Shown: piece after piece, positions 1 through 2,318 of the stretch
How positions within the stretch are numbered: position 1 is the first letter of the stretch
Layout: each line of letters starts with the position of its first letter
NCBI RefSeq assembly: GCF_003334255.1
Contig: NZ_QOWU01000136.1
DNA: 2,318 nt
Origin: Escherichia coli
GTDB lineage: Bacteria; Pseudomonadota; Gammaproteobacteria; Enterobacterales; Enterobacteriaceae
Reading direction: 5' to 3' (one strand)
Notes under the pieces: model-generated
What the model saw: only the letters and a program-made list of their open reading frames with translations
Told to the model about the DNA's origin: nothing
Databases searched by the model: none
Program-made: the position numbers and the translations under genes

Positions 1-2007
1 GGCGGTGGTCAGCAGGCGGCTGTTCTCACCGCTTCCACTGGTCAGGCGCAGACTGAAGCGCACGCCCTTCACCACCCTCGGCGTGTCCCATTTCGCCAGC
101 GCCAGATACTGGCTGTCAGCTGCGCTCACCTCCACCGTCAGGTGCTGCACTGCCGGTGGGATGACGCTGTTCAGGGAGCCTGACTGCGGCTCAAAGCGGG
201 CACCGTTATCCACGATGGCTTCTTTTTCCGGTACGTGCTGCACCGCCGTGATGGCAAAGGTGCCGTCCGTGTTTTCCCGGATGGCCACACAGCGGAACAG
301 GCGACGGCGCAGTGACGGCAGGGAGAGTCCCCACACCCCGTATGTCTCCACACCATCAGGCAGGGTACTGACCTGTATCCGGTCCGGCGCGGGGTGTGCG
401 GTGATGTCCACACTCACCGGCTTACCGCTGCCGTTAATCAGGTTCACCGTGGCGGCACCTGTCCCCGGAAGTGTCACTTCACGGTCCAGCGTCAGGGTGC
501 GGGTGGCAGCATCAATGGACAGGACACGTCCGCCGGTCAGGGTCCCGGCATAGTCATTATCACAGATTTCAATAATGTCACCGGGTGTGTGCCGCAGCCC
601 CTGAGACCCGAGTGTGAAATCCACCGTCTGCGTTTCCAGCAGTTCGGTCTTTATCACCCACAGCCCGGCACGGTGGGCCTGACCGCGGCTGGTACAGCCG
701 AACGCGTCCATCTTCAGCAGGTTGCGTCCGTAGCGCAGTATGGCTTCCGGGTCTTCCACCAGTTCCGTGGAGGTCTGCCAGCCGTTCTGCGGGTCGGTGT
801 AATTCACCTCCACCGCCGTGTGCCGGTCCTTCAGGGCACTGAAGCTGTAGCGGAACCCCACGCCGTTATCATCCACCACCACATCGCTGTTGGTGTACGG
901 CCACACCACATCCGACGGGCGGTCCTGAACGAACGTCAGCGTCTGGCCGTTCCATACCGGCATACAGCGCATCGCCGAGCAGAAATCACTGAGAACGTCC
1001 CACGCCTTACGCTGTTGTGCCAGGTACGCATTAAAGGTCATCCGCGGCTCTGTGCCCCCGAAACCATCCGGGACCGTCTGGTCGCAGTACTGCCCGATGG
1101 CATACAGCGCCCACTTGTCCACATCCGCCGCCCCCAGACGTTTTCCCATGCCGTAGCGCGGGTGAGTCAGCATGTCCCACAGGCACCAGGCCGGGTTGTT
1201 GCTGTATGCCGGTTTCAGACTGCCGTCCCAGATACCACTGTACGTGCGTTTTTCCGGGTCATAGTTTGACGGCACCTGGATGATGCGACCGCGGATATGG
1301 TAGTTCACCGTCATCTGCTGGCCGCCGAACTGCTCCGCATCCACCTGCAGCCCCACAATGGCCGTGTTCGGGTAGCACTGTTTCACATCGATGATTTCGG
1401 TGTATGACGACCAGAGCGTCTTATTCTGCAGCTGGTCCGTGGTGCTGTCCGCCGTCTCCCTGACCATCCGGATGTTAAAGGGGCGGGGAGGCAGATTATC
1501 CAGAATCACCGAGGCCAGGAACTGTGAGGTGGTCTTGCCGTTAATGGTGACATCCTTTTCTGTCACCCAGTTACCGTTACGCTGTAACTGAATCAGCAGA
1601 CGGACAGAGGACGGATTACGGTCACCCTTTGACGTGGTCTCCACCAGTGACTGCACCCCGAAGGTCACCCGCAGGCGGTCAATGTTCGCTGACGTAATGG
1701 TGCGTGTCACCGGTTTTGCCCTGGTCACTTCCACACCCAGTACAGTTTCAGAGCCGGAGGACTCAAAGCCTTCCGGTGGTGTCTGCTCCTGCTCCCCGGC
1801 GCGCCAGACCGCGGTCACACCGTGTATCACGGGATTACCGTCCGTGTCCGTCAGCGGGGTTTTGTTCACCAGAATACTCTGCAGGCCTTTCACCGGACCT
1901 TCAATGGGTCCCTCACCAATCGCATCAATCACGCTCATCATCTGCGTGGATTTGAGATTATCCTTCGCCTCACGAGGTGTGTGTGCCTTACCGCCACCTT
2001 TACCCAC
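1..2007 (-). CDS. J: Host specificity / tail tip protein J homolog (lambda gpJ-like), N-terminal 669 codons; partial, 3' end lies beyond position 1
   Basis: Reverse-complement translation from GTG (2007..2005) is open for all 669 codons to the window edge (2007 is divisible by 3). The product begins MGKGGGKAHTPREAKDNLKSTQMMSVIDAIGEGPIEGPVKGLQS..., which closely matches the lambda J N-terminus as I recall it (MGKGSSKGHTPREAKDNLKSTQLLSVIDAISEGPIEGP...). Further lambda-J-like blocks follow, e.g. WSSYTEIIDVKQCYPNTA, PAYSNNPAWCLWDMLTHPRYGMGKRLGAADVDKWALY, LFRCVAIRENTDGTFAITAVQHVPEKEAIVDNG. An alternative in-frame GTG start at 2022..2020 would add 5 codons. Confidence 0.92.
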   Translation of the reverse strand, partial: MGKGGGKAHTPREAKDNLKSTQMMSVIDAIGEGPIEGPVKGLQSILVNKTPLTDTDGNPVIHGVTAVWRAGEQEQTPPEGFESSGSETVLGVEVTRAKPVTRTITSANIDRLRVTFGVQSLVETTSKGDRNPSSVRLLIQLQRNGNWVTEKDVTINGKTTSQFLASVILDNLPPRPFNIRMVRETADSTTDQLQNKTLWSSYTEIIDVKQCYPNTAIVGLQVDAEQFGGQQMTVNYHIRGRIIQVPSNYDPEKRTYSGIWDGSLKPAYSNNPAWCLWDMLTHPRYGMGKRLGAADVDKWALYAIGQYCDQTVPDGFGGTEPRMTFNAYLAQQRKAWDVLSDFCSAMRCMPVWNGQTLTFVQDRPSDVVWPYTNSDVVVDDNGVGFRYSFSALKDRHTAVEVNYTDPQNGWQTSTELVEDPEAILRYGRNLLKMDAFGCTSRGQAHRAGLWVIKTELLETQTVDFTLGSQGLRHTPGDIIEICDNDYAGTLTGGRVLSIDAATRTLTLDREVTLPGTGAATVNLINGSGKPVSVDITAHPAPDRIQVSTLPDGVETYGVWGLSLPSLRRRLFRCVAIRENTDGTFAITAVQHVPEKEAIVDNGARFEPQSGSLNSVIPPAVQHLTVEVSAADSQYLALAKWDTPRVVKGVRFSLRLTSGSGENSRLLTTA

Positions 2008-2019: not shown

Positions 2020-2049
2020 CACCGTCCGCTGCCGGACACTGTTGATGTA

Positions 2050-2080
2050 TAAAAACAACAGGCACCCCGGAGGGTGCCTG
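2050..2080 (-). terminator. Rho-independent terminator, minus-strand orientation, in the I-J intergenic region
   Basis: Minus-strand RNA reads CAGGCACCC-UCCG-GGGUGCCUG followed by UUGUUUUUAUAC: a perfect 9-bp GC-rich stem (2059..2067 with 2072..2080), a 4-nt loop, then a U-rich tract (2050..2058). On the plus strand the hairpin is not followed by a T-tract, so it is orientation-specific. Confidence 0.7.
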
Positions 2081-2118
2081 CATCATGACGGAATAAAAAT
2101 TCTGAATATCTTCACATT

Positions 2119-2146
2119 TTCACAAACTGACTGTGGCGCGTATAAT
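2119..2146 (+). promoter_or_regulatory. Sigma70-type promoter, plus strand: -35 TTCACA (2119..2124), 16-bp spacer, -10 TATAAT (2141..2146)
   Basis: Perfect consensus -10 hexamer TATAAT and a 5/6 match to the -35 consensus TTGACA with 16-bp spacing. An AT-rich UP-element-like stretch lies upstream (gaataaaaattctgaatatc, 2091..2110). Predicted transcription start is near 2153. Confidence 0.55.
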
Positions 2147-2152
2147 TTCGCT

Positions 2153-2248
2153 GCGTTAGTGTTTTTTCTGCCCGAGTAACAAAAACAACTCCTTAACTCT
2201 AATCTTTGTCTGTCCCCGCAGCTCCGCGATCACTGCGGGATTTTTTTT
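2153..2248 (+). ncRNA. Candidate small non-coding RNA (about 95 nt), antisense to the tail operon, in the I-J intergenic insert
   Basis: Bounded by the plus-strand promoter (2119..2146) and the plus-strand intrinsic terminator (2215..2248). No ATG and no ORF longer than 6 codons between them. Contains a CA-rich stretch (UAACAAAAACAACUCC, about 2177..2192) and an AU-rich stretch before the terminator, as is typical of Hfq-associated sRNAs. Prediction from sequence only. Confidence 0.45.
2215..2248 (+). terminator. Rho-independent terminator, plus-strand orientation
   Basis: CCCGCAG (2215..2221) pairs with CUGCGGG (2233..2239) as a 7-bp GC-rich stem around an 11-nt loop, followed directly by 8 consecutive T (2241..2248) and further T-rich sequence. 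On the minus strand the hairpin is preceded by A-rich and followed by non-U-rich sequence, so it is plus-strand specific. It ends 8 bp before the convergent I stop codon. Confidence 0.7.
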
Positions 2249-2255
2249 ATTCTTT

Positions 2256-2318
2256 TTACCCCTGCCGCCCGATAACCACGACCTTTCCGCCCCCGCCTTC
2301 ATCACGGGTACTGATGTC
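2256..2318 (-). CDS. Tail assembly protein I homolog (lambda gpI-like), C-terminal 20 codons plus stop; partial, 5' end lies beyond position 2318
   Basis: Reverse-complement frame starting at 2318 reads DISTRDEGGGGKVVVIGRQG then TAA (2258..2256). This resembles the C-terminal end of lambda gpI as I recall it (...EISTADEGDGGQVVVIGR). GC-rich coding-like composition stops abruptly at this stop codon. Position directly upstream of J fits lambdoid gene order. Confidence 0.6.
   Translation of the reverse strand, partial: DISTRDEGGGGKVVVIGRQG

Follow-up and report, generated by a model that had tools for sequence, protein, structure and literature searches.

The spacer between prophage tail genes I and J carries a variant of the Hfq-dependent small RNA PasB in an Escherichia coli genome

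Five prophage-encoded small RNAs (sRNAs) have been defined in the EPEC O127:H6 strain E2348/69 (Pearl Mizrahi et al. 2021, PMC8550237). One of them, PasB (E2348CN_0006), lies on the minus strand of NC_011601.1 at 1466343-1466261 (83 nt), in prophage PP6, between E2348C_1436 and E2348C_1437, and was probed on Northern blots with AATCCCGCAGTGATCGCGGAGCT (Table S6 of the same paper). In that study the band had the size predicted by RNA-seq and depended on Hfq, with changes in the hfq mutant of log2 -6.8 in the activating and -2.4 in the non-activating condition. PasB took part in 37 RIL-seq interactions, being the second RNA (the 3' partner) in 99-100% of the chimeras, and the authors found no common motif among its targets. 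In the lysogen, the flanking tail genes had baseMean values of 5 and 15 and PasB values of 482-1082. Because its neighbours are almost silent there, PasB is an autonomous transcription unit. A later survey (Zhu, Shabalina and Storz 2026, bioRxiv 10.64898/2026.05.13.724894) reported 1,158 hits for PasB, in most cases a single one in each genome and confined to Escherichia and Shigella, with the gene embedded in a phage structural operon and commoner than the other Pas RNAs in non-EPEC/EHEC strains. The same survey described a polymorphism at 'position 27', which is C in PasB and another base in PasB-2, and proposed, with conservation as its only evidence, a seed in the single-stranded stretch ahead of the terminator.

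In EHEC Sakai, EcOnc22 (in Sp15), EcOnc23 (Sp14) and EcOnc24 (Sp11) were recovered as homologous orphan Hfq-CRAC peaks on the plus strand; on Northern blots they give bands of about 85 nt, and they lose stability when Hfq is missing (Tree et al. 2014, PMC4104026, Table S2). Two other prophage RNAs, AgvB and AsxR, are encoded downstream of a Q-antiterminated PR', measure 51-60 nt and act on sRNAs.

The window analysed here is a stretch of 2,318 nucleotides from E. coli (contig NZ_QOWU01000136.1 of assembly GCF_003334255.1). An earlier note, made from the letters of the window, had proposed that it holds a prophage-encoded, non-coding sRNA of about 95 nt, of the Hfq-binding type, with its own promoter and terminator and antisense to the tail operon. 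This proposal holds, as the locus is an allele of the validated PasB: the candidate is a real sRNA gene that was already known, a variant of PasB and not a new kind of element. The features to which we refer below are the following, in order along the window:

1-2007, minus strand: 5' part of the host specificity / tail tip gene J, with a GTG start at 2005-2007 (read as fMet, MGKGGGKAHTPREAKDNLKST...)
2048-2081, minus strand: terminator-like hairpin on the strand of the tail genes, GCAGGCACCCUCCGGGGUGCCUGU followed by UGUUUUUAUA, 40 nt upstream of J
2082-2118, plus strand: AT-rich block CATCATGACGGAATAAAAATTCTGAATATCTTCACATT, a candidate UP element at -71 to -35 relative to the predicted start, its function suggested by its position
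2119-2146, plus strand: predicted sigma-70 promoter, with -35 TTCACA at 2119-2124, a 16-nt spacer and -10 TATAAT at 2141-2146
2153-2248, plus strand: predicted primary pasB transcript of 96 nt, placed by the -10 box, the match to the PasB probe and the homology to E2348/69 PasB
2162-2167, plus strand: internal U-run, present in all alleles and paired with the A-rich stretch in the predicted fold of the window allele
2178-2189, plus strand: AAC AAA AAC AAC, a run of four A-A-N triplets to which the distal face of Hfq may bind, read from the sequence
2189-2213, plus strand: seed region CUCCUUAACUCUAAUCUUUGUCUGU, predicted to be unpaired, of which 2189-2206 is homologous to the E2348/69 seed CUCCUUCACAUUGAUCUUCA
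2215-2248, plus strand: Rho-independent terminator, with stem CCCGCAG (2215-2221) / CUGCGGG (2233-2239), an 11-nt loop and U8 at 2241-2248
2256-2318, minus strand: 3' end of tail assembly gene I, with a TAA stop at 2256-2258, 8 nt past the U-tract of the sRNA

The window thus contains about 2 kb of gene J (its 5' portion) and the final 20 codons of gene I, both on the minus strand, on either side of a 248-bp spacer with the sRNA gene on the plus strand. In close relatives, both E. coli chromosomes and free phages, the tail genes follow the lambdoid order H-M-L-K-I-J.

Several lines of evidence identify the gene. The reverse complement of the PasB probe occurs in the window exactly and only once, at 2220-2242 (23 nt), and the window is 90% identical to the E2348/69 PasB RNA over 100 aligned columns. 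In E2348/69 the gene likewise occupies the I-J spacer, that of PP6, and the two spacers align over their whole length, so that the two alleles share their neighbour genes, spacer, orientation, promoter block and an identical terminator. Outside the seed, the window allele differs from E2348/69 PasB by a C inserted in the U-run and by one extra U in the tail. Judged on sequence, its homology to PasB, its place in the I-J spacer opposite the tail genes, and a promoter and terminator of its own with a U-tract of at least 4 should make it a member of the PasB family; its seed is not that of E2348/69 PasB, a difference that concerns target specificity and not the identity of the gene. We therefore favour, with a probability of roughly 0.9, the reading that the window carries a pasB allele, a free-standing, moron-style sRNA gene set against the tail operon whose product is stabilised by Hfq and acts in trans. 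None of 5,426 complete E. coli genomes contains an identical copy of the window; the closest reaches 97.8%. In addition, a search of the plus strand against Rfam 15 returned nothing above noise (Trp_leader at 17.6 bits and anti-hemB at 13.3 bits, both mainly on the terminator); as Rfam 15 gives no match for PasB or EcOnc22-24, automated annotation will go on missing both.

The anatomy of the gene bears out most of what the earlier note had read from it. The TATAAT box with a good -35 element is there, matching the consensus at 11 of 12 positions (TTCACA-16-TATAAT), and is the best of two promoter-like sites in the window, compared with 0.7 +/- 0.8 such sites in shuffles. Across 81 distinct spacers, A2, T3, A5 and T6 of the -10 box are near-invariant, and a good -35 is found only in PasB-type alleles. 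Equally, the GC stem and U8 tract expected about 70 nt past the -10 box are present, the GC-rich 7-bp stem beginning 69 nt after it and the T8 run occupying 2241-2248. Transcription probably starts at G2153, as the -10 box suggests and the lengths of the EcOnc22-24 CRAC peaks support. The published 5' end of E2348/69 PasB corresponds approximately, being taken from read coverage and band size, to window position 2169, 16 nt downstream of the predicted start, which gives an RNA of 80 nt; at its 3' end, the RNA as published stops with the final U of the U-tract, window position 2248.

The claim that the region has no coding capacity also stands, since 2153-2248 holds no ATG and neither of the open reading frames that overlap it is credible. 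The plus strand of the spacer has no ATG and no Shine-Dalgarno sequence from which a small protein might be made. A mechanical 181-aa frame on the plus strand is antisense to J and was rejected as coding. On the minus strand, a 49-aa frame (2156-2305) spans the whole spacer and is unlikely to be coding because indels of 1 nt and 4 nt between alleles break it. Some phage records annotate a hypothetical protein at the site of this 49-aa frame.

With respect to structure, the minimum free energy (MFE) of 2153-2248 is -18.2 kcal/mol (z = -1.2), a stability that is unremarkable for the composition, and the predicted fold leaves about 20 nt unpaired ahead of the terminator stem. The earlier note had also pointed to a pairing of GCTGCG (2150-2155) with CGCAGC (2217-2222) that would close the RNA into a compact fold. 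The complementarity is real, but the closing helix does not survive: the MFE fold leaves the pairing unused, three of the six 5' bases precede G2153, CGCAG already forms the 5' arm of the stem in the terminator, and alleles of the BP-4795 type have GGGCG at that site. From the sequence and from known Hfq motifs, binding of Hfq would be expected at the U8 tail and at the AAC AAA AAC AAC stretch (2178-2189).

The tail-strand hairpin at 2048-2081 adjoins the sRNA gene and is not a demonstrated component of it. The AT-rich block at 2082-2118, immediately upstream of the promoter, is highly conserved across spacers, an apparent conservation that is partly biased because part of the block served as the search anchor. 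Over the 81 distinct I-J spacers, hairpin and block together are conserved above the level of the sRNA body. They could act as a stop for tail-direction transcription that is not antiterminated, or could serve the pasB promoter as an UP element or as a site for a regulator. The Rfam model STnc100 aligned with the hairpin region (2049-2130) at 24.3 bits, below its gathering threshold of 47; this alignment skips 127 of the 206 model positions and covers only the 5' 27 nt of the model and the terminator.

To which RNAs would such an sRNA pair? In the parts of Table S3 of the RIL-seq study covered here (parts 10 and 30 and excerpts of part 31), the partners of PasB include E2348C_2648, the napF 5'UTR, map, the nlpD-rpoS spacer, hflX and fabR, as well as ler, bfpB, caiF, rplX and the tolC 5'UTR. 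Several of the partner fragments lie at a ribosome-binding site or start codon, namely those of yijD, caiF, rpoS, yrdD and napF. We scanned ten chosen partner fragments against the E2348/69 RNA by windowed RNAduplex, with 40 shuffles each. The best duplex fell in PasB nt 32-55 (CUCCUUCACAUUGAUCUUCA) for seven of the ten partners, against 26% of 400 dinucleotide shuffles (binomial ~0.005); the remaining three showed no fit to this seed. The summed duplex energy was -185.5 kcal/mol, against -157.6 +/- 6.8 kcal/mol for shuffles, and was reached by none of the 40 shuffle sets. The napF leader forms 16 contiguous base pairs with PasB (-25.4 kcal/mol, z = -4.7), and the 8-mer GUGAAGGA, the complement of UCCUUCAC, is present in three of the ten fragments (fabR/yijD, caiF and ler). 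Taken together, the bias of the duplexes towards nt 32-55, their energies and the shared 8-mer place the seed of E2348/69 PasB at UCCUUCAC (AUUGAUCUUC), which is consistent with the proposal of Zhu et al. (bioRxiv 10.64898/2026.05.13.724894). As a separate observation, the rpoS leader/start region and the LEE master regulator ler are both among the partners in the parts of Table S3 covered, and the ler fragment holds the seed complement UGUGAAGGA.

The window allele carries a different version of this region. It reads CUCCUUAACUCUAAUCUU-UGUCUG and keeps the CUCCUU core, which resembles an anti-Shine-Dalgarno sequence, but it differs from E2348/69 PasB by four substitutions and a 4-nt deletion, all inside the seed, immediately before the terminator. 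With the same EPEC fragments, its best duplexes shift elsewhere and fall to shuffle level. Given these substitutions and the deletion, the targets of the window allele probably differ from those of E2348/69 PasB. The 'position 27' of the published numbering is the C/A difference between E2348/69 and the commonest allele that we recovered, and it sits centrally in the mapped E2348/69 seed; the window allele has A there, like the common variant PasB-2. Because both this polymorphism and the differences of the window allele lie inside the seed, alleles may regulate different genes. In the E2348/69 allele the 9-mer CTTCACATT has two copies, one in the seed and the other in the block ahead of the promoter. 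The window allele lacks this repeat, which may be due to chance or be the trace of a local duplication.

The same comparison extends to EHEC. The EcOnc22, EcOnc23 and EcOnc24 loci of Sakai are all I-J spacers with the tail genes on the minus strand, and are three identical copies. No locus matched the EcOnc22/23/24 probe, as printed, from end to end; of its reverse complement, only the 3' 23 nt are found exactly in Sp15, at the site homologous to the PasB body. EcOnc22-24 have in common with PasB the I-J spacer, the strand relative to the tail genes, the upstream block, the CCCGCAG/CUGCGGG terminator and the ACUCC and UAAUCUUCAU motifs, whereas they are 74% identical to it overall, have AATAAT as their -10 box and differ in the 5' loop and in the flanks of the seed. 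PasB of EPEC and EcOnc22/23/24 of EHEC are one tail-operon sRNA family. The name 'EcOnc' does not occur in the text of the 2026 survey (bioRxiv 10.64898/2026.05.13.724894), and Table S6 of the 2021 study gives no EHEC homologue of PasB (PMC8550237). The CRAC peaks of EcOnc22-24 measure 60-62 nt, as many as separate the predicted start, a G found 7 nt past the -10 box, from the final base that the probe covers. For the two to coincide, the coordinates in the paper must be offset by +122 to +124 against the current Sakai record NC_002695.2. An offset of about this size does exist, since the AgvB1 probe maps ~140 nt above the peak listed for it. Short of proof, these lengths support a start at the base homologous to window G2153.

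We assembled the family from two pattern scans of IMG/VR, to which phage and E. coli records were added; they gave 64 distinct promoter-to-terminator variants and 81 distinct spacers. Conserved among them are the key positions of the -10 box (TATAAT, TATCAT, AATAAT or GATAAT), the 5' GCGUUA, the U-run, AACUCC/ACUCC, AAUCUU, the terminator stem and the U-tail. In addition, a run of three or four A-R-N triplets is found in every allele type despite the change in sequence. The variable parts are the loop after the U-run, the bases that flank CUCC and the loop of the terminator, the terminator stem being invariant in canonical alleles. A subfamily of IMG/VR variants (v25, v42, v48 and v50) keeps the upstream block and the CUCCUUAAGG core with a longer body, and has another, longer hairpin (CUCCCGUCAG...ACGGGAG) where the terminator stands, its 3' module being replaced as a whole.

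Conservation and covariation across related prophages had been named by the earlier note as a check on the RNA, and the two fared differently: the motifs are conserved in the 81 distinct spacers, while no covariation was recovered. RNAalifold on 26 diverse alleles, in an alignment where MAFFT misaligned some terminators, gave only three pairs, all in the terminator and none in a conserved 5' structure, and single-sequence folds differ between allele types; on both counts, there is no evidence of covariation. The structural support consists of the invariant stem with variable loops and of the one subfamily with a replaced hairpin.

The spacer is present in 1,810 of 5,426 complete E. coli genomes (about one third), with a median of 2 copies per carrier genome. 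Among 100,044 species-representative genomes, the only carriers were E. albertii and two probable contaminant contigs; this contig scan used a 17-base pattern, which produced ~60 chance matches and only 3 true ones. The two contigs, one from a 'Collinsella sp.' MAG and the other a 460-bp contig of 'Parendozoicomonas haliclonae', carry I-J spacers of the E. coli type with pasB-family genes, and most likely reflect contamination or mis-binning, not true hosts. The family is essentially confined to Escherichia, E. albertii being the only credible match outside E. coli.

It is tempting to go further and to regard the I-J spacer as the site of a single sRNA family, PasB together with EcOnc22-24, built as a cassette that swaps its seed and possibly acts on the tail mRNA at induction. 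We hold this broader idea tentatively, and would sooner bet against it than for it. If it were true, the promoter block, the Hfq modules and the terminator would stay fixed while a seed of ~20 nt around the CUCC core diversifies, so that each prophage would give its host a different post-transcriptional regulon, and the window allele would represent another specificity.

Could the RNA serve the phage itself, mainly as a cis-antisense regulator that, during lytic growth, brings about cleavage of the late tail mRNA, alters the expression of J or interferes by convergent transcription? Its geometry would suit such a role: its complementarity to the late tail mRNA is perfect over the I-J spacer, every spacer examined, those of free Stx phages included, has the gene at this site and in this orientation within the tail operon, and its terminator ends 8 nt from the stop of gene I, with the conserved tail-strand terminator hairpin adjoining. 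The expression and interaction data speak for a different role. In the E2348/69 lysogen PasB is abundant and the tail mRNAs are almost absent, and the RIL-seq rows covered give many partners in trans with a shared complementary motif. Moreover, the seed is the most variable part of the RNA, which fits diversification of targets in trans, whereas a cis role would put no constraint on its sequence. We consider it unlikely that regulation of the tail mRNA in cis is the main role of PasB; a secondary role in cis may come into play during induction.

Less probable still is that the RNA is an anti-sRNA sponge like AgvB and AsxR, in which the A/C-rich GAGUAACAAAAACAAC would mimic the targets of GcvB and titrate a core sRNA, a kinship at which the earlier note had hinted. 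The stretch is indeed rich in C and A, it contains A-R-N triplets of the kind that AgvB uses on the distal face of Hfq, and its origin is a prophage. Against this, the AgvB and AsxR models (RF02702 and RF02703) are absent from the Rfam matches at E <= 10, and the best duplex with GcvB reaches -12.8 kcal/mol, which is at the level of shuffles (-14.9 +/- 2.5). The sRNA-sRNA part of Table S3, in the rows covered, gives PasB a single partner, an intergenic fragment by pasA, the other partners being mRNAs, so that these rows hold no sRNA partner of the kind a sponge would need. Finally, that there is no functional RNA here, and that promoter-like and terminator-like sequences arose by chance in a spacer that the phage conserves for other purposes, for example as a boundary of recombination or to terminate the tail operon, is hardly credible: conservation is higher in the upstream block and in the hairpin on the tail strand than in the RNA body, and the fold is unremarkable, but two laboratories working on two pathotypes detected the RNA on Northern blots and found it Hfq-dependent and Hfq-bound, which refutes this explanation for the E2348/69 and Sakai alleles.

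On the favoured reading, that of a trans-acting pasB allele, the following sequence of events can be proposed. In the lysogen the tail genes would be silent and host RNA polymerase would transcribe pasB from its own sigma-70 promoter, probably from G2153 and as far as the intrinsic terminator ending at 2248. Hfq would stabilise the transcript through the 3' hairpin and U-tail, and probably also through the (AAN)4 stretch. PasB would then act in trans through the single-stranded seed just upstream of the terminator, with its CUCCUU core, and this seed would pair with host and virulence mRNAs, in their ribosome-binding regions and in their coding sequences. What is published for the alleles of E2348/69 and Sakai is that the RNA exists, that it depends on Hfq and that it forms Hfq-bound chimeras with mRNAs (PMC8550237, PMC4104026); inference enters with the precise position of the 5' end, with whether the RNA represses or activates, and with what the window allele, whose seed differs, would target.

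This locus illustrates that a promoter, a terminator and the lack of an open reading frame, read from raw sequence, can recover a true Hfq-dependent sRNA. What our analysis adds to the published description is the unification of PasB with EcOnc22-24, the mapping of the E2348/69 seed, and the finding that allelic variation, that of the window included, is concentrated in this seed.

Compared with the other known prophage sRNAs, AgvB and AsxR are like PasB in being short Hfq-binding prophage RNAs in which the 3' terminator module is conserved and the targeting region varies. In contrast to them, loci of the PasB type lie in the tail operon, encode RNAs of 80-96 nt, have mRNAs as partners and are not homologous to them; location, size and the lack of homology rule out that the window RNA is AgvB or AsxR. 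The earlier note had also named IsrK as a possible match, and the IsrK model, like those of AgvB and AsxR, is not among the Rfam matches at E <= 10. A parallel in design is offered by the class II Hfq-dependent sRNAs such as ChiX and MgrR, which combine a Rho-independent terminator and a long U-tail with an internal A-R-N repeat and depend strongly on Hfq. Although unrelated to them in sequence, the pasB gene of the window would resemble ChiX and MgrR in the layout of its modules, as judged from its candidate Hfq motifs.
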